Of a DNA stretch of 32,000 bases, positions 1-7,855 are shown piece after piece (the first letter of the stretch is position 1; each line of letters opens with the position of its first letter). The stretch comes from Zymomonas mobilis subsp. mobilis ATCC 10988 (GTDB lineage: Bacteria > Pseudomonadota > Alphaproteobacteria > Sphingomonadales > Sphingomonadaceae), in the NCBI RefSeq assembly GCF_000175255.2, contig NC_017262.1, forward strand, positions 630,001 to 662,000, read 5' to 3'. A program made the translations under genes and the position numbers. The notes under the pieces are model-generated. The model saw only the letters and a list, made by a program, of their open reading frames with translations, had not been told where the DNA came from and searched no databases.

Positions 1-548
1 AATATTTTTTATTTTTTGGTGCAGTAGAGCCTAAAAAAAATATTGCTAGAATTATTGCTGCTCATAAAGAAAGTAAAACTAAACTACCATTAGTTCTTGT
101 TGTTTCACAAGGGTGGGGATGTGATGATGTATGGGAAGAAATAAATAATTACTCTAATGATGGATCAAGGCGTTGTATTGTAATCAAATATTTACAACGA
201 GATGATTTAATTAACATAATTTCGCATGCTAAAGCGCTCATTTTTCCTTCTTTATATGAAGGCTTTGGTTTACCAGCTCTCGAAGCTATGGCATTGGGAA
301 CCCCCGTGGTTGGGTCAACAGAAGGCAGTCTTCCAGAAATTATTGGCCAAGCTGGAATATTAGTAAATCCTTTAAGTGTCGAAGAATTGAAAAATGCTAT
401 AATACAGCTAGAATATAATCCAGAACTCACAAAAAAACTTATACAAGCAGGGAAAGATCGTGCGATCTTTTTCTCTAATAGCGCTTATTGTAAGCGTTTG
501 TCTTCTGCCTTAGACCTTTGCAGTGCGAAATTACATAAATTAAAATAA
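1..548 (+). CDS. Glycosyltransferase, GT-B fold ('group 1'/GT4-like), C-terminal part; 5' end lies outside the window
   Basis: The frame is open from the window edge (codon phase from nt 3) to TAA at 546-548. The translation ...HAKALIFPSLYEGFGLPALEAMALGTPVVGSTEGSLPEIIGQAGILVNP... carries the E-x7-E type C-terminal signature of group-1 glycosyltransferases. Track ORF 288..548 is only the tail from an internal Met. Confidence 0.85.
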   Translation, partial: YFLFFGAVEPKKNIARIIAAHKESKTKLPLVLVVSQGWGCDDVWEEINNYSNDGSRRCIVIKYLQRDDLINIISHAKALIFPSLYEGFGLPALEAMALGTPVVGSTEGSLPEIIGQAGILVNPLSVEELKNAIIQLEYNPELTKKLIQAGKDRAIFFSNSAYCKRLSSALDLCSAKLHKLK

Positions 549-596
549 AATAACATTAAAATTCAAAACTATTCATACAATAGAAAGGATTGTTTA

Positions 597-1580
597 ATGC
601 GCTATCTTGTCACTGGCGGCGCAGGTTTTGTTGGAAGCCATACTGTTTTGGCTCTTCTAGATGCTGGCCACGAAGTTGTTGTTCTTGATAATTTAAGTAC
701 TGGACACATCCAAGCTGTTCCTAAAAGTGTTGAATTTCATCATGTTGATTTACTAGACAAAACAGCCATAGCAAACGTAATCGCTAACCGTGCATGGGAT
801 GGAGTTTTTCATTTTGCGGCACTTTCTCAAGTCGCAGAAAGCATGAGAAAACCATTAAAATACTTTTACCATAATTATCTTACAGCTTTTAATCTTATTC
901 AGACTTGTATTGAAAATAACATAAATAAGCTGGTATTCTCTTCTACAGCTGCATTATTCGGGGGAGAGAATAGAGTTGATCCAATCTCCGAAACTGATCT
1001 CATTCAGCCAGGATCGCCATATGGCGAGAGTAAATACATGATCGAACGGATTCTATATTGGGCTGATAGAATATATCATTTGCACAGTGCATGTTTACGA
1101 TATTTTAATGCAGCTGGGGCAGATCACTTAGGGCGAGCTGGAGAAGATCATCGACCAGAAACACATCTTATTCCTTTAACAATAGATTCGGCTTTAGGAC
1201 GGCGACCTACATTAAAATTATTCGGAACTGACTATCCAACCCGAGACGGATCTTGTATCCGCGATTATGTTCATGTTTCTGATCTTGCAAACGCCCATTT
1301 ACGCGCAATTGATCAAATCAATGATCGGAGCGTTGTATATAACGTTGGGAATGGACAAGGATATTCTAATTTAGAAGTTATAGAGTCTGTCGAACGAGTA
1401 AGTGGTCAAAAAGTTTCATGGGAACCAGCCCCACGTCGACAAGGTGATCCTGCAGTATTAGTAGCAGATTCTACAGCTCTGCAAAAAGATACTGGCTGGA
1501 TGACAAATTTTGGCAGTATCGACAAAATTGTTGAAACAGCCTTATTATGGCGTGAAAAACATCCACAAGGATATATTTAA
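597..1580 (+). CDS. galE: UDP-glucose (or UDP-hexose/HexNAc) 4-epimerase, extended SDR family
   Basis: 327 aa. It has the N-terminal Rossmann motif VTGGAGFVGSH, the catalytic YGESK (YxxxK), LRYFNAAGA, and GalE-like length and order of motifs. AAAGGA lies upstream of the ATG. Confidence 0.85.
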   Translation: MRYLVTGGAGFVGSHTVLALLDAGHEVVVLDNLSTGHIQAVPKSVEFHHVDLLDKTAIANVIANRAWDGVFHFAALSQVAESMRKPLKYFYHNYLTAFNLIQTCIENNINKLVFSSTAALFGGENRVDPISETDLIQPGSPYGESKYMIERILYWADRIYHLHSACLRYFNAAGADHLGRAGEDHRPETHLIPLTIDSALGRRPTLKLFGTDYPTRDGSCIRDYVHVSDLANAHLRAIDQINDRSVVYNVGNGQGYSNLEVIESVERVSGQKVSWEPAPRRQGDPAVLVADSTALQKDTGWMTNFGSIDKIVETALLWREKHPQGYI

Positions 1581-1666
1581 GATAAATCTTATAATAAATT
1601 ATAATAGTATTAATTTTTACAACAATTGATGGATTCTATTGTCATCAATAAAGGTATCTTTTAAAA

Positions 1667-1948
1667 ATGAGCGATCTAAAAGAAAAATTAGATTTTTCAA
1701 TATATCGAGATAAAAATACGCCTACATTGTTAGCGTATAAAGATTTAGAAAATTCTTTTATTACTTTTTACCAAAGAAATCTTCGACTAAAAAGTTCTCT
1801 TTCGTGGAAAATTACTTTCCCAATAAGAAGAATTCGTCAGTTTGTCTATCGCTGGAGAGATCGTTTCAGTAAATTATTTTTAGCCTTCCAGCATAATTGT
1901 ATTATAATAGGTTGCAAAAAAAAAAGTTATCTCGCTTTCGTGGGCTAA
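1667..1948 (+). CDS. Probable N-terminal fragment (93 codons) of the downstream GT2 gene, separated from it by a frame break in an A10 run
   Basis: ATG-initiated ORF in frame 2. It contains SLSWKITFPIRR, a motif I recall from N-termini of large polysaccharide GT2 enzymes. It ends 21 nt after the A10 tract, while frame 1 is open across the same tract. Confidence 0.5.
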   Translation: MSDLKEKLDFSIYRDKNTPTLLAYKDLENSFITFYQRNLRLKSSLSWKITFPIRRIRQFVYRWRDRFSKLFLAFQHNCIIIGCKKKSYLAFVG

Positions 1949-3852
1949 CTAAAATTGATTTAGCTTACCATAATTGGCGACAAAATAATCCATTGCCTCG
2001 GCTAAAAGACAAAGAGATTGTACCATTACGGATACTAGCCCTTCTTAGTCCAAATGTAATTCAATCTCCTGATTATTTTGATTGTATAGCTAGTTTACAG
2101 TCTCAGCGAGGTTGTACAGTTGAGACTGTATCTTTGCCTCTTTCTCAATTTTCTGTAGTTTCTGAACCATATGATGTCGTTTTTTGGATACGAATGGCAA
2201 CGATTTTTGAAGAGGATTATGGACAAATTGCATATCAAAAATTATCTGAAGGATACAGTTTATTTTACGCAGACCATGATACAAAGCTTAGCTCTATTCT
2301 GCATGAATGCCCATTTTTTAAACCTGATTTTTCTCCAGAACTTCTTAATACGGTAGATTATCTTGCAGCAGGTTGCGCCTTTAGGCCTTATTGGATGGAC
2401 GGCCAAATTAACATAGATGATAATTTCATTTACGAAAAAATTAAGCATTTATCTCGCGCTAAAGTTAAACATTTACCATTATGCCTAAGTCACCTTACCT
2501 GCCCCAACACAGATCAATTTTTTCCACCACAATCTCCAATTAAGTTTTCAATAAATGAATTTATAAAAGACAAAAAAATTACTATTATTATACCTACTGC
2601 TTTTTATGGATCTTATTTGAAAAATCTATTGAAGAGTCTGCATTTAACAACAAAAGAATTTTCTAATAAAATAGAAATTGTAATCATCACCAATTGTAGT
2701 CCATCGAAATCTGAAGAATTTTTGAAAAATTGCCCGATACGACATAAAGTAATTTATTATAAAAATGATTTTAATTACTCTGGTGTTAATAATAAAGCCG
2801 TTCGTGAAACTGATGGCGAAATACTAATTTTTCTTAATGATGACATTGAATTACAGGATTCTCATTGGCTTCCCGATATGCTTATGCTTCTTCAGCGGCC
2901 AAAATCTGGAGCAGTAGGAAGTTTACTACGTTATCCTGATAACACTATACAACATGCAGGATGCCTAATTGGTATGAATGGAGGAGTCGGGCATATCGGT
3001 GTCGGACTTCCCGTAGATTCAAATACTTACCATGGAATTATAACAGCCCAAAGAGAAGTATCTGCAGTTACTGGAGCTTGTCTAGCTATACGTCGAGATG
3101 TTTTCTTAGAAGTTGGTATGTTCGACGAAAATTTACCGTTTTCTTTCAACGACATTGCTCTTTGTCTACAGTTAAAAGATTTAGGCTATACTAACTATAT
3201 TACAACCCGTAGTCACATTATTCATCATGAGTCTCGCTCCCGTGGTTATGATACGACAGCGCATAAATATCAAACTAACCGCGAATACTTTTTATATGCC
3301 CGTTCTAAATATCCTAGTTTAAGAGAATCTGACCCTTATTATAATCCGAATCTTGATCTTTCATCTGTTTATATGGGATATGCATCACTTTCTGAAATGC
3401 AACGGAAACATTTTCTGTATCCTAGAACTCAAGGTTGTTTAGTGATCATTGCACAAAGAATGGATTATGATCAATCCGCCCCTATTATTCTCGATACATT
3501 AGCACAACTAGTTTCTTGCGGAAAAACGCGAGTGGTCATTGCCGGCGAGAATGAAACATATTTTTCACGGAAGTGTCATGATATGTTAAGTCCATCCTCT
3601 GTTCTAATTAAATCTATTAATAATTTACAAAACATTCTATTGAATGCGCCAGAATATACGTTACTTCTTGATTTAAATTTACTAGAATTAACAGATGGAT
3701 TGCCATCTTCTTTACCAGTAATTATTTTTTACATCCAAAATAAAAAAATTTTTTTTATAGATTATTTTGGGCGCCGCACATTACAATGGCAATCATTAAA
3801 TATACAAGATATAAATCTAAATAGTCTAGTATTCCCTGATAAGGGTTTTTAA
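1897..3852 (+). CDS. Large multidomain family-2 glycosyltransferase (GT-A fold); the 5' end is uncertain and is probably continuous with ORF 1667..1948
   Basis: The central domain has GT2 hallmarks: ITIIIPTAFYGSYLKNLL..., IEIVIITNCS, LIFLNDDIEL (DxD-like), and HHESRSRG near its end. The track start is a TTG with no Shine-Dalgarno, and the first in-frame ATG is about codon 100. Confidence 0.8.
   Translation: MYYNRLQKKKLSRFRGLTKIDLAYHNWRQNNPLPRLKDKEIVPLRILALLSPNVIQSPDYFDCIASLQSQRGCTVETVSLPLSQFSVVSEPYDVVFWIRMATIFEEDYGQIAYQKLSEGYSLFYADHDTKLSSILHECPFFKPDFSPELLNTVDYLAAGCAFRPYWMDGQINIDDNFIYEKIKHLSRAKVKHLPLCLSHLTCPNTDQFFPPQSPIKFSINEFIKDKKITIIIPTAFYGSYLKNLLKSLHLTTKEFSNKIEIVIITNCSPSKSEEFLKNCPIRHKVIYYKNDFNYSGVNNKAVRETDGEILIFLNDDIELQDSHWLPDMLMLLQRPKSGAVGSLLRYPDNTIQHAGCLIGMNGGVGHIGVGLPVDSNTYHGIITAQREVSAVTGACLAIRRDVFLEVGMFDENLPFSFNDIALCLQLKDLGYTNYITTRSHIIHHESRSRGYDTTAHKYQTNREYFLYARSKYPSLRESDPYYNPNLDLSSVYMGYASLSEMQRKHFLYPRTQGCLVIIAQRMDYDQSAPIILDTLAQLVSCGKTRVVIAGENETYFSRKCHDMLSPSSVLIKSINNLQNILLNAPEYTLLLDLNLLELTDGLPSSLPVIIFYIQNKKIFFIDYFGRRTLQWQSLNIQDINLNSLVFPDKGF
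1916..1925 (+). repeat. Homopolymeric A10 tract at the junction of two overlapping reading frames
   Basis: Direct read: ggt tgc AAA AAA AAA Agt. It is the longest homopolymer I noticed in the window. Both frame 2 (upstream ORF) and frame 1 (downstream ORF) are open through it. Confidence 0.95.
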
Positions 3853-3938
3853 ATATTTAAGTATTGTAAAATTTTTATAATCATGTAAGAAGCCTCATAT
3901 CTAGTGAATGCTTATTTCATCAAAGAGTAAAATCAATA

Positions 3939-5483
3939 ATGAATAATCATGAAATAAAAATTTCGTTTATTGTTCCGGCGTATAATGTAAAAAGCTACCT
4001 TGGAAAATGTTTAACCTCACTACAACAGCAATCTCTCGATAACTTTGAGATTATTGTAGTCGAGGACTGTTCAACAGATGGCACCTTATCCAAAGCGCGG
4101 CAATACGCAAGAAAAGATCCAAGAATTCAAATCATTTGTCACAAAGAAAATCAGGGTCTAGGTCCTGCTCGCAATACAGGTATGGAATATGCGCGTGGGA
4201 AATATATCTGTTTCGTTGATTCCGATGATTGGGTTGACCCTGGTTATGGTGAAGCCTTTTATCTAGAGGCAGAGCGCACCTCTGCAGATATGGTAGTTGG
4301 GACGTTTTATGCTGTGTTCTCACAAGGCGCACGTATAGTTTCACATTTTGTTGATCCTGCAGTACGTTATGCATCGCTTCCATTTGATGCACAGACTTGT
4401 CCTGCTGTGTTATCTATGCCGACTCCAGTTTGGGATAAATGTTATAGGCGAGAATTTTTAAAAAATTATAACATTCGTTTCCCAGCTTTAATTGGAGAAG
4501 ATATCCCTTTTCAATGGGAAGCAATGACACAAGCAAAACGTATATCAGTCGTTGGAGAGCCCTTTTATTATTACCGTATCAGAGATACTAAGAAAAATCG
4601 TTCTCTTACTGCTGGACGTGATATTTTTGCAGATGTCTTTTTGGCTCAAGAAAAAGCCTTAGCTTTTTTGAATGATAGTGGTCATTATGAAAAGCTTAAG
4701 AGCATTTGGTGGGAGCGTATGATTAAAGAGCTTCTCCATTTAACTGACAAGTCTGGTGACACGCTGGTTTCAGACAATTTTGTAGCTAAAGTATTTCATA
4801 CAATGTTGCGAAAATCTTTAGAACCAGTAGATTTTTCTTCTCTTAATCGTGCATATATACCAGAACATGTTCTGTTTATGGCTATGTTTGCGCAAAAATG
4901 CTCCTCATGGAAAGAATTCCAAGAATTGGTAGCTCGATCTCATCCCAGCAATCATCAACCACGTCCTCGATTTATAGGTCTAAATAAACTGCAAATGGTG
5001 TTGACTAGGTATGATCTTGATGTAGATGAAAACAAAATATCTCATCAATTAAAAATTTCTAATCATAATATTAGCATGCCTTATTATCCAGATCTTCTAG
5101 ATTATAAAGCTATTATATATGAAAACAATCGCATTATAATTTTACCCCCAGCTCATGATCCCAACATGGAACCAGCGCGAATTAATATTAACTTTGAAGG
5201 CCATGGATGCTCTAAAATTTGGTACTTCCTCTCATGCTATCAAGAAGGTCGATCTTCTGAACTTTGCATCAGCCAGATTCTTCTAGATAAGAACAAAAGA
5301 ATACTTATAGATAAAAAAACAATTCTTCATATTGGAGAAAAAATAGTTCTTTCTTTTTTAGAAATTCCTAAAGATATTTCATTCAATGAATGTAGTTTTG
5401 AATTTTCTGTAAAATGTCTTTCTGGTTTTCCTGCATGGGAATCAGATGTAACTATTTCAAATTTTTATGGGGAAGGTTTATGA
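3939..5483 (+). CDS. Family-2 glycosyltransferase with an unassigned C-terminal domain of about 185 aa
   Basis: N-terminus ISFIVPAYNVKSYLGKCLTSLQQQSLDNFEIIVVEDCSTDGT...FVDSDDW is a classic GT2 (GT-A, DxD) signature. Residues from about 330 to 514 match no family I recognise. Confidence 0.85.
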   Translation: MNNHEIKISFIVPAYNVKSYLGKCLTSLQQQSLDNFEIIVVEDCSTDGTLSKARQYARKDPRIQIICHKENQGLGPARNTGMEYARGKYICFVDSDDWVDPGYGEAFYLEAERTSADMVVGTFYAVFSQGARIVSHFVDPAVRYASLPFDAQTCPAVLSMPTPVWDKCYRREFLKNYNIRFPALIGEDIPFQWEAMTQAKRISVVGEPFYYYRIRDTKKNRSLTAGRDIFADVFLAQEKALAFLNDSGHYEKLKSIWWERMIKELLHLTDKSGDTLVSDNFVAKVFHTMLRKSLEPVDFSSLNRAYIPEHVLFMAMFAQKCSSWKEFQELVARSHPSNHQPRPRFIGLNKLQMVLTRYDLDVDENKISHQLKISNHNISMPYYPDLLDYKAIIYENNRIIILPPAHDPNMEPARININFEGHGCSKIWYFLSCYQEGRSSELCISQILLDKNKRILIDKKTILHIGEKIVLSFLEIPKDISFNECSFEFSVKCLSGFPAWESDVTISNFYGEGL

Positions 5484-6400
5484 AAAAACGTGTCCAAATC
5501 TACTTGTGCACAAATGGCTTTTTTGATCTTCCTAAAAAAGCGCCTTTTATTCCTATTCAAGGCGGAGCAGCTATAAATCAGCGCCTCCCGGGCGTTATAG
5601 GGGATGATACTGGTGAAAATATTTCAAAACTGAACCCAATGTTTTGTGAAATGACTGCTATGTATTGGGCGTGGAAAAATGCGCCAAAAACAGATTATAT
5701 CGGTTTTTTTCATTACCGAAGATTATTTAATTTTGGCCGTCCACCTGCTCCTGAACGACATTGGTCCGAACGTATTTTTTCTGATTTCAAACCTGAAACT
5801 ATGAAAAGGTTTGGTTGGGATTATGAAACTATTTTAAATACTATCGATGGTGCTGACATTATTTTACCTCATATTGAAGATGTTCAACGCCCACCATTAT
5901 GGGATCAACCTGGAACGCTTTACGAGCATTACCGGAACTGCCATGTTTCCCGAGATATCAACCTTACAATAAAAGTAATAAAAGATCTGTACCCAGAAGA
6001 TACTCTGTTAACTGATAAAGTCATGAATTCAACACATGGGTATTTCTGTCATATGTTTATTATGAAATGGGATATATTTCAAGAATATATGAAATGGGTC
6101 TTTGATATTACTTTATCTGTTACGGATAAAATTGATTTAAATGCGCCTATATACAAATACAACCCTCAGGAACGTCGAGTATCTGGTTTTATCGGTGAAC
6201 GTATTATTAATATTTTTGTTGAAAAAAAACGTCGACAAGGTGCAAAAATTATGGAGATGGAGCGAATTTTAGGGAATCTCCCTAAAGAAGGATTTCTTCA
6301 ATCTAAGGGAGAAAATCGTAAAAAATTCTTTATAAAGAAGCTTAATCGAGCGATAACAATGCGTTTAGGTAATCATCAGTTTACCCTAGGTGCAGGATAA
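5480..6400 (+). CDS. DUF4422-type putative glycosyltransferase (candidate galactofuranosyltransferase)
   Basis: MKKRVQIYLCTN...IPIQGGAA...GDDTGENISKLNPMFCEMTAMYWAWKN...DYIGFFHYRRLF matches my recollection of the DUF4422 (PF14393) N-terminal pattern. ATG 5480 overlaps the upstream TGA (ATGA) and is preceded by GGGGAAGG. The track's 5414 start would only add an overlapping leader. Confidence 0.75.
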   Translation: MKKRVQIYLCTNGFFDLPKKAPFIPIQGGAAINQRLPGVIGDDTGENISKLNPMFCEMTAMYWAWKNAPKTDYIGFFHYRRLFNFGRPPAPERHWSERIFSDFKPETMKRFGWDYETILNTIDGADIILPHIEDVQRPPLWDQPGTLYEHYRNCHVSRDINLTIKVIKDLYPEDTLLTDKVMNSTHGYFCHMFIMKWDIFQEYMKWVFDITLSVTDKIDLNAPIYKYNPQERRVSGFIGERIINIFVEKKRRQGAKIMEMERILGNLPKEGFLQSKGENRKKFFIKKLNRAITMRLGNHQFTLGAG

Positions 6401-6513
6401 TATTTTTTGGGAATTACATTAATATTCATAGTATATATTTAATTTTTTAAAAAAATACTTGTATATAATATAATAATTTTTAAATTTTAGTTTTCCACTT
6501 ATAAGGAAGAATT

Positions 6514-7659
6514 ATGCGATTTTGTGTTGTTGGGGCTGGCTTTAGTGGAGCAATAATAGCTCGCCATTTGTCAGACAAAGGATACAAAGTACTTTTACTA
6601 GATGAAAGAAAACATATTGCAGGCAACTGCCATACAGAACGAGATACATCTACTGGTATCATGGTACATCGCTATGGCCCTCATATTTTTCATACCGCAG
6701 ATAAGCGTGTATGGGATTATGTGCAACAATTCGGTAAATTTAGACCATACATTAATCGAGTAAAAGCAGTTTCAAAAAATTGTGTATATACACTTCCAGT
6801 TAATTTATTGACAATCAATCAATTTTTTAAGACAACATTTTCACCAAAAGAAGCACGCCTTTTCATTGAACAAAATGCTAATAAATTAATTATTGATCCC
6901 CAAACTTTTGAAGAGCAAGCCTTATCAATGATTGGCTCTGATCTTTATAAGGCATTTTTTGAAGGCTATACAAAAAAACAATGGGGAATAGATCCAAAAA
7001 ACCTTCCTTCTTCAATCCTAAAGCGTTTGCCATTACGATTTAATTATGATGATAACTATTTTAATCATCCTTATCAAGGAATGCCAGAAAACGGCTATAC
7101 AGCTATAATTGAAAATATTTTGAAATCAAAAAATATAGAAATTTGTCTACAAACAAAATTTGAAGATATCGAAGAAAATTTTTCTCACATTTTTTATACA
7201 GGCCCTATTGATCGATATTTCAAATTTTCACTTGGACACTTAGGGTATCGTACACTTGATTTTATACGTATAGATGCAGAGGGAGATTACCAAGGAACAG
7301 CAGTAATTAATTACTGTGATTATGATATTCCATTTACCCGGATTTCAGAACATAAGCACTTTGCACCTTGGGAAGCGGATAATTTTAAAAATACTGTAGC
7401 ATTTAAAGAATATAGTCGACTAGCTGGGAAAGAAGATACTCCGTATTATCCAATTAGGCTTGTTGGAGAAAAAAAATTACTTGAAAATTATGTAGAATTA
7501 GCAAAAAATACATCAAATGTTTCTTTCCTAGGCCGTCTTGGTACGTATCGTTATCTTGATATGGATGTAACTATTTCTGAAGCACTTAATGTATGTGACC
7601 AAATTGATAAATCTTTAGGCATATCAGAACTGCCATCATTTTTTGTTGATCCATTATAG
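6514..7659 (+). CDS. glf: UDP-galactopyranose mutase
   Basis: 381 aa. It has the FAD-binding VVGAGFSGA motif, then HIAGNCHT...VHRYGPHIFHT, EQALSMIGSDLYKAFFEGYTKKQWG, RISEHKHF and PYYPI, all in the order of E. coli Glf as I remember it. AAGGAAG lies 7 nt before the ATG. Confidence 0.9.
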   Translation: MRFCVVGAGFSGAIIARHLSDKGYKVLLLDERKHIAGNCHTERDTSTGIMVHRYGPHIFHTADKRVWDYVQQFGKFRPYINRVKAVSKNCVYTLPVNLLTINQFFKTTFSPKEARLFIEQNANKLIIDPQTFEEQALSMIGSDLYKAFFEGYTKKQWGIDPKNLPSSILKRLPLRFNYDDNYFNHPYQGMPENGYTAIIENILKSKNIEICLQTKFEDIEENFSHIFYTGPIDRYFKFSLGHLGYRTLDFIRIDAEGDYQGTAVINYCDYDIPFTRISEHKHFAPWEADNFKNTVAFKEYSRLAGKEDTPYYPIRLVGEKKLLENYVELAKNTSNVSFLGRLGTYRYLDMDVTISEALNVCDQIDKSLGISELPSFFVDPL

Positions 7660-7855
7660 TTGATCATTAAAAGGTAAGGTTTTATTATTTTTTAAATTTA
7701 ATCAGCTGATATTATTACGTCAATAGCTATCCACCGTATAACTTAAAGCAATTTTCTCTGGACCTTGTCTGTTCCAAAATAGGAAAAAACAAAATCAGCT
7801 CCAACGAAAGATTACTTTATCCCAAAATGATATTATTTACTTTATCGAAAGCAGC

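Follow-up and report, generated by a model that had tools for sequence, protein, structure and literature searches.

A stretch of 32,000 nucleotides (nt) from Zymomonas mobilis subsp. mobilis ATCC 10988 (contig NC_017262.1, positions 630,001 to 662,000; hereafter the window, numbered from its first letter) contains a large glycosyltransferase gene that appears as a pair of open reading frames (ORFs) that overlap, with a run of ten adenines (A10) in the overlap. The question raised by this locus was whether it is one gene broken by a single base, a gene switched or recoded at the run, two separate genes, or a sequencing error. The comparison with homologs points to one ancestral GT2 glycosyltransferase gene, split here at the A run. 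The allele is probably a young frameshift at a mutable tract, which would be leaky via transcriptional slippage and reversible via replication slippage. Coordinates are those of the window and all features described are on the forward (+) strand.

Ten consecutive A residues were found at 1916-1925 (ggttgc AAAAAAAAAA gtta; ggttgcAAAAAAAAAAgtta), inside the 52-nt overlap of an ORF at 1667-1948 (ATG start, 93 amino acids (aa)) and an ORF at 1897-3852 (TTG start, 651 aa), as had been stated in a preliminary description of the locus. In the zero frame the run is read TGC AAA AAA AAA AGT. Replacement of A10 by A11 in silico produced one frame of 728 codons (...IIGCKKKKLSRFRGLTKIDLAYHNWRQ...; IIGCKKKKLSRFRGLTK), in agreement with the fusion that had been proposed, and replacement by A8 produced a single frame of 727 codons. 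Among the lengths tried (A7-A13), only these changes of +1 or -2 restored the frame; A7, A9, A10, A12 and A13 all terminated at most about 12 codons past the tract. The whole disrupted gene (1667-3852) is a 728-codon multidomain GT2 glycosyltransferase when given one extra A. It comprises the upstream ORF (1667-1948), the frame-break site itself (1916-1925) and, in frame 1, what remains of the transferase coding sequence (1926-3852), whose homology to intact relatives starts at the first codon past the tract. Codons 1-86 of the upstream ORF correspond to the true transferase N-terminus, and the last 7 codons (SYLAFVG) are out-of-frame read-through ending at TAA 1946-1948.

The run was the only homopolymer of at least 9 nt within the window. 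It was rejected as a statistical oddity in itself, as 58 of 100 dinucleotide shuffles of the window contained at least one A10 or T10. The non-random aspect is that A10 coincides with the sole break in the frame of a gene that is intact in its homologs.

Six intact single-polypeptide homologs of 723-762 aa were identified in Acetobacteraceae (Gluconacetobacter sacchari, Gluconobacter cerinus, Acidomonas methanolica and three uncultured relatives), and their alignment covers both ORFs. Five full-length database homologs showed 49-59% identity over 94-99% of the fused protein, the 93-aa part included. The intact Acidomonas methanolica gene (745 aa) was matched over residues 14-722, with 51% identity over the best segment. 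Because these homologs are single polypeptides spanning the 93-aa peptide, the two ORFs are read as halves of one GT2 gene, as the preliminary description had supposed. All six keep the N-terminal module fused and span the break, which lies exactly at the A run. The contrary possibility, of homologs that begin only at the 651-aa ORF, was also looked for; every homolog carried a counterpart of the 93-aa peptide.

Codons 1-86 contain the conserved motif AY.DLE..F.TF..RN.RLK.SLSW..T.P.R. Residues S44, L45, S46, W47, T50, P52 and R54, together with Y101, H102 and W104 beyond the break, were invariant in the six homologs. The motifs given in the preliminary description, SLSW..T.P.R (44-54) followed by YH.W (101-104), are real. 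In 11 of 123 matches the GT2 domain is preceded on its N-terminal side by a similar S-x-S-W-[RK]-x-T-x-P motif, which no Pfam or NCBIfam model covers. In the form S-x-S-W-[RK]-x-T-x-P-[ILV]-R (window 1790-1830, residues 42-55) it lies at the end of a long helix and recurs in otherwise distant large glycosyltransferases (P0008, P0017, P0019, P0024, P0081 and P0091).

The Pfam GT2 family (PF00535) was matched at residues 306-480 of the fusion (E = 3.8e-16; 59.9 bits against a cut-off of 23.3). An acidic DXD-type motif was present in the segment FLNDDIE, with N391 and D393 invariant across 63 sequences. The N-terminal 284 aa and C-terminal 142 aa gave no Pfam match at E up to 10. NCBIfam searches of the full protein returned the GT2 domain (303-536) only, with every match below the curated cut-off, and the family profile gave no match to PDB sequences. 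An AlphaFold model of the fused protein was made from the 63-sequence alignment (predicted local distance difference test (pLDDT) 86, predicted template modelling score (pTM) 0.84). The predicted layout comprised helices 19-43 and 45-82 (a hairpin at 19-82), a loop at 83-98, a degenerate GT-A-like domain at 121-280, a catalytic GT2 domain at 305-550 and an alpha/beta domain at 588-700. Foldseek matched the model to GT-A enzymes with probability 1.00 (K4CP chondroitin polymerase, heparosan synthase 2, LH3, ppGalNAc-T and GlfT2). These included the two-domain polymerases K4CP, heparosan synthase 2, LH3, and the galactofuranosyltransferase GlfT2.

The frame break corresponds to residues 83-87, in the predicted loop directly after helix 2. 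A break at this point, between the helical hairpin and the first globular domain, would suit an arrangement of two separate polypeptides, or one in which the downstream part is enough, made as 646-651 aa from TTG 1912 or TTG 1897 or as 552 aa from ATG 2194. Public annotations call such proteins. The mechanical ORF starts at TTG 1897, RefSeq starts the protein at TTG 1912 (646 aa), and GenBank and JGI start it at ATG 2194 (552 aa). The downstream ORF was 100% identical to Z. mobilis WP_141916804 and WP_141933255, and the 93-aa ORF is labelled hypothetical protein in three Z. mobilis assemblies (TQL28017, TQL29952 and TWD59701). Over window 1897-2196 the public records disagree on the start, and the frameshift is flagged in none.

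The candidate starts do not favour a split gene. The preliminary description had noted that the downstream frame offers only a TTG lacking a Shine-Dalgarno (SD) sequence, and this was borne out by duplex energies of +1.2 kcal/mol for TTG 1897 and +0.8 kcal/mol for TTG 1912, neither an SD match. The first in-frame ATG is codon 100, at 2194; this is residue 177 of the fused protein, so that a product started there would begin inside the first GT-A-like domain of the model. ATG 1667 has an AAAGG match (-4.0 kcal/mol). Among neighbouring gene starts, three of the four tested gave -5.4 to -7.1 kcal/mol and the second GT2 gene gave -2.4. Among 1.84 billion representative proteins the 93-aa peptide had no stand-alone relative but itself, which weighs against a naturally split architecture, as does the fusion of the N-terminal module in all homologs. 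Judged with the model, independent function of the two pieces is unlikely because neither TTG has an SD match, ATG 2194 lies inside domain 1 and the 93-aa peptide lacks stand-alone relatives. The two-piece explanation was accordingly given little credence.

An error in the sequence was the next explanation to be weighed, namely that the true genome has A11 and the gene is intact. Homopolymers are the commonest sites of indel errors, and the PacBio assembly of strain uvs51 is discordant at another point of the same gene (A6T7 against A7T8). A10 was nevertheless present in five independent datasets that differ in strain and laboratory of origin and together span at least three platforms: uvs51 (VFOI01, PacBio), CP1 (VIVG01, PacBio), NRRL B-1960 (CP021053), and the Logan assemblies of Sequence Read Archive (SRA) runs SRR066225 and SRR3925454. 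The B-1960 assembly was made from Nanopore plus ~1,400x Illumina reads and polished with Pilon (PMC5532819). The tract was identical in loci L001-L004, L092-L095 and L097-L099. The SRR066225 and SRR3925454 contigs were identical to the window, as was uvs51 if homopolymer indels are set aside. Exact look-ups of the epimerase, the second GT2 enzyme (514 aa), glf and the 646-aa protein gave A10 at every locus among the matches listed. An assembly artefact, one of the alternatives offered in the preliminary description, is very unlikely.

The discordant site in uvs51 is a homopolymer pair near the 3' end of the split gene, A7T8 at 3742-3756, which reads A6T7 in that assembly (L001 ~6040-6060) and gives an altered C-terminus (a 636-aa variant, P0001). 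The cause is a PacBio miscall of the homopolymers or else a true pair of indels in a strain mutagenised with acridine orange and N-methyl-N'-nitro-N-nitrosoguanidine (MNNG).

The carriers represent three natural isolates in two phylogroups. Strain uvs51 is a descendant of ATCC 10988, the type strain (1924, from Mexican agave sap). CP1 has its origin in Brazilian sugarcane juice, and B-1960 in beer that had spoiled in the UK; the three fall in two different groups at 99% average nucleotide identity (PMC8088579). Divergence between the ATCC 10988 and CP1/B-1960 lineages was ~0.1% within the surface-polysaccharide island that contains the gene and 1.25-1.5% in both flanks (window 1-7700; L093, L097/L098). 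From this difference, the whole island underwent lateral exchange in recent times, and the A10 allele is shared by descent rather than independently acquired. The 2.2-kb gene had 0 substitutions between the lineages, where ~2 would be expected from the rest of the island, a deficit that is not significant. With 0 single-nucleotide polymorphisms (SNPs) in the gene, conservation among the Zymomonas copies carries no weight and no selection test is possible.

The frame break was the single lesion in the 2.2 kb of the gene, and identity of the N-terminal ORF to the homologs was 0.51, that of the intact homolog P0006. Neither further degenerative lesions nor relaxed constraint was seen, over an elapsed time (0 SNPs) too short to judge by. 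The absence of any sign of decay would mean that the lesion is either young or tolerated. At the tract site the homologs have CAT AAA AAA TCA or AAC AAA AAT AAA AAT, that is, A6 or interrupted runs. Locally, the A11 reading aligned without gaps to Gluconobacter cerinus (C-K-K-K-K-L-S-R-F against C-H-K-K-S-L-S-A-F). These alignments would fit an A6 run extended to A11 by substitution, followed by the loss of a single A.

A long homopolymer tract in a surface-glycan gene is the classic setting of phase variation, and phase-variable lipopolysaccharide (LPS) or capsule glycosyltransferases with such tracts occur in Campylobacter, Haemophilus, Neisseria and Helicobacter. By this explanation, replication slippage between A10 and A11 at high frequency would toggle the transferase, and with it the surface glycan, in subpopulations. 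The tract is long enough and is placed as in those genes, within the ORF of a surface-glycan transferase where a one-base change switches the frame; A10 is out of frame, and only +1 or -2 restores it. The tracts of the known systems are commonly poly-G/C and are polymorphic within and between strains. Here the tract is poly-A in a highly polyploid host, and no polymorphism was seen: A10 was present in all five datasets, covering the three natural isolates and several laboratory derivatives. Neither the public assemblies nor the protein sets examined contained A8, A9, A11 or a tract of any other length. No in-frame allele of 727/728 aa was found among matches or cluster members in a collection of ~15 billion public proteins, and the same collection held no variants of the 93-aa ORF. 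An exact scan of JGI metagenome contigs with the left flank gave 0 matches, and a protein-based scan gave none that was confirmed. A family-alignment scan of genome contigs returned, among the matches listed, one close relative (Acidomonas, intact) and no Z. mobilis. Both Logan contigs cross the tract unbroken, which speaks, though weakly, against mixed populations. For Z. mobilis as many as 100 genome copies per cell have been reported (PMC8088579), which would blur an on/off state at the level of the cell.

A point in favour of switching comes from the same species. In strain ZM4, a change from T8 to T9 splits bcsA (ZMO1082/ZMO1083) into a 67-aa ORF and a main ORF, while T8 is the tract length of ZM401 and of 12 other strains; to account for the residual flocculation of ZM4, the authors suggested slippage by RNA polymerase or by ribosomes (PMC8088579; bioRxiv 10.1101/2021.06.18.448934). 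Both loci are GT2-family polysaccharide synthase genes with a one-base change in a homopolymer of 9-10 nt, giving a short N-terminal ORF (67 aa in bcsA, 93 aa here) and a long one, and in both an in-frame tract gives the full enzyme. For bcsA both tract lengths, which differ between ZM4 and ZM401, and a flocculation phenotype are documented, whereas here only the out-of-frame length was found and no phenotype is known. BcsA is membrane-bound, whereas the present protein is predicted to be a soluble multidomain GT-A protein and belongs to a galactofuranose-glycan island. By analogy, the locus may be regarded as a second Z. mobilis example of the bcsA kind, without a known in-frame allele or phenotype. 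Weighing the uniform A10 against the bcsA precedent, phase variation at this tract was considered unlikely, and the switchable glycan proposed in the preliminary description has not been borne out by the tract lengths of related strains.

A run in the overlap of two ORFs could also serve for recoding. If recoding were programmed and selected, the out-of-frame A10 would be the functional genotype, and a fixed fraction of slippage or a -1 ribosomal shift would supply a low dose of full-length transferase beside the 93-aa N-terminal peptide, as in Shigella mxiE or insertion sequence (IS) elements. A slippery heptamer of the form X XXY YYZ is present in the zero frame of ORF 1667 as A AAA AAA, and a -1 slip there would give the product GCKKKKLSR, the same as that of A11. 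The dnaX frameshift heptamer is A AAA AAG, from which the present one differs. The fold of 1926-2005 had an energy of -14.7 kcal/mol (z = -0.9), with 28 of 200 shuffles folding as well. A stimulatory RNA structure for -1 frameshifting was dropped, the downstream hairpin being no better than the shuffles. No upstream SD-like stimulator was seen on reading the sequence, no formal scan being made. Because the frameshift and the long A run are absent from the homologs and there is no stimulatory structure, the locus is not a conserved recoding site; the programmed -1 frameshifting that had been put forward is not supported, on these same points and on the heptamer.

Slippage by RNA polymerase was considered on the same evidence. 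Transcription inserts bases preferentially within A/T runs, mostly one base at a time, and the insertions become exponentially more frequent as the run lengthens (PMC5574713). Nine consecutive A or T form a productive slippage site in bacteria, as in IS elements, mxiE and Thermus dnaX (PMC1088944). The present run, of at least 9 A/T at the junction of overlapping ORFs, resembles those of Shigella flexneri mxiE, IS orfA-orfB (A9-A10) and Thermus thermophilus dnaX, where overlapping ORFs are joined by slippage at 9 or more A/T (PMC1088944); as in mxiE, the longer product requires the slip. In those systems the run and the two-ORF layout are conserved in diverged homologs, whereas here six of six homologs are single ORFs without the run. 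Several points speak for a selected programme: A10 lies exactly in the ORF overlap, the required +1 A is the favoured slippage product, and the allele has been kept in two phylogroups and on three continents with no second lesion and an undecayed upstream ORF. The A11 allele may itself be costly, because ribosome sliding in E. coli systems is robust at A11 and slight at A9/A10 (PMC4363877). The slight sliding at A10 counts against a ribosomal programme here, and the persistence of identical gene copies is without weight for the reason given above. Programmed, selected recoding was on balance judged improbable.

The preferred reading is that of a young, leaky and reversible frameshift allele, and the mechanism proposed for it is as follows. 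The original change was most likely A11 to A10, and every known carrier is 'off' at the DNA level. From ATG 1667, ribosomes would translate 86 N-terminal codons, pass over the A run and terminate seven codons on, at TAA 1946-1948, and the remaining 642 codons lack a credible start. Full-length enzyme could still arise by three routes. In the first and most likely, RNA polymerase would add one untemplated A on A10, at a low level of per-cent order; in the second, ribosomes would make a rare -1 slip on A AAA AAA; in the third, replication slippage would restore A11 in some genome copies. Since +1 A is the favoured transcription error, some full-length product is expected, and by analogy with the slippage sites above it is expected as a by-product rather than as a demonstrated programme. 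We infer from the tract that the A10 allele is both leaky and reversible. There is no indication of a programme or of selection behind the arrangement, and in its behaviour it is like the bcsA T8/T9 frameshift of ZM4 described above.

Of the interpretation in the preliminary description, the splitting of a single gene at the A run has stood; an artefact is very unlikely, and neither switching nor programmed -1 frameshifting has found support. The 'fresh pseudogene' that it named as an alternative fits best, with the addition that some transcriptional +1 A rescue is expected at A10. A related condition has been reported in Buchnera and Blochmannia, where, as cited in PMC5009743, frameshifted genes are rescued by transcriptional slippage at poly(A). 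The cases are alike in that the frameshift sits at a long A tract of a gene that is intact elsewhere, and in that partial rescue through the RNA is to be expected. The Buchnera and Blochmannia genomes are AT-rich and reduced with many tracts, whereas the present case concerns a single tract in a free-living bacterium and a rescue that is predicted.

Several points weigh against this preferred reading. The leaky-expression step is one that we infer. The persistence of A10 in isolates from Mexico, Brazil and the UK, and through the acridine-orange and MNNG mutagenesis of ATCC 10988 derivatives, could mean that the A10 state is selected instead. The undecayed upstream ORF would also fit a functional slippage-dependent gene. 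The position of the break in a predicted loop makes a two-piece protein structurally not absurd, as far as the model goes. The concern over selection can be put in a specific form, in which A10 itself is selected in a highly polyploid host as a source of a set, low transferase dose, through RNA polymerase slippage or a minority of A11 genome copies in each cell; A11 would then be disfavoured through ribosome sliding and transcript heterogeneity. We think this unlikely. If true, it would make the gene a chromosomal glycosyltransferase with slippage-dependent expression, and polyploidy would turn a phase-variation tract into dosage control.

The gene lies in an island with a G+C content of ~30-40%, against 44-51% beyond 7.8 kb; the split gene itself has 33%. 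The first island gene is the 3' part of a GT4 glycosyltransferase (1-548; 418 aa in full) with an EpsE/HpsO-like GT4 C-terminus. It is followed by a GalE-like NAD-dependent sugar epimerase of 327 aa (597-1580; PF01370, E = 1.6e-55). Downstream of the split gene are an intact second GT2 glycosyltransferase of 514 aa (3939-5483) and an intact DUF4422 protein of 306 aa (5480-6400; PF14393, E = 9.5e-62); in the homolog clusters both are conserved alongside the split gene. The WbbM-type galactosyltransferases belong to the DUF4422 domain family. The next gene encodes the UDP-galactopyranose mutase Glf, of 381 aa (6514-7659; PF03275, E = 2.9e-76), which supplies UDP-galactofuranose. The likely start of the DUF4422 gene is ATG 5480, with a 4-nt ATGA overlap with the second GT2 gene (306 aa), and not ATG 5414 (328 aa); public annotations use both (window 5414-5483). 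A ~128-bp indel separates the two Zymomonas lineages just downstream of glf (near window 7760).

The intact homologs were accompanied by the same gene set, namely the 514-aa GT2, DUF4422, glf, epimerase and GT4 genes. Their clusters additionally hold Poly_export and ATP-binding cassette (ABC) transporter genes and, in one case, KpsC/S-like genes. The export genes in these clusters indicate that the glycan would be an ABC-transporter-dependent, galactofuranose-containing capsule or O-polysaccharide. Over the extent of the window and its flanks, the Zymomonas island lacked export genes. Every Acetobacteraceae cluster also encodes, immediately upstream of the intact transferase, a conserved protein of ~460-530 aa without a Pfam match (L085 6445-7986, L087 6549-7958, L088 6598-7986 and L005 1528-3123); it has no counterpart in the Zymomonas island, where the pathway may be incomplete.

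Some public records show the locus as a hypothetical protein of 93 aa followed by a transferase of 552 aa, and others as a transferase of 646 aa with a TTG start. The records thereby mask a frameshifted 728-codon gene in both the ATCC 10988 type-strain lineage and the CP1/B-1960 lineage. As a second homopolymer-frameshifted polysaccharide synthase gene of a polyploid species, it prompts the question of how tracts of this kind behave across dozens of genome copies. Z. mobilis is an industrial ethanologen in which surface polysaccharides affect flocculation, biofilm formation and stress tolerance. The chief practical value of the finding lies in the correction of the annotation and in the access that a single base gives to an uncharacterised galactofuranose-glycan island of this industrial bacterium. 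Repair by one base to A11, or recoding of the run as an in-frame, AAG-rich sequence, would offer an easy way of learning which product the galactofuranose island forms.

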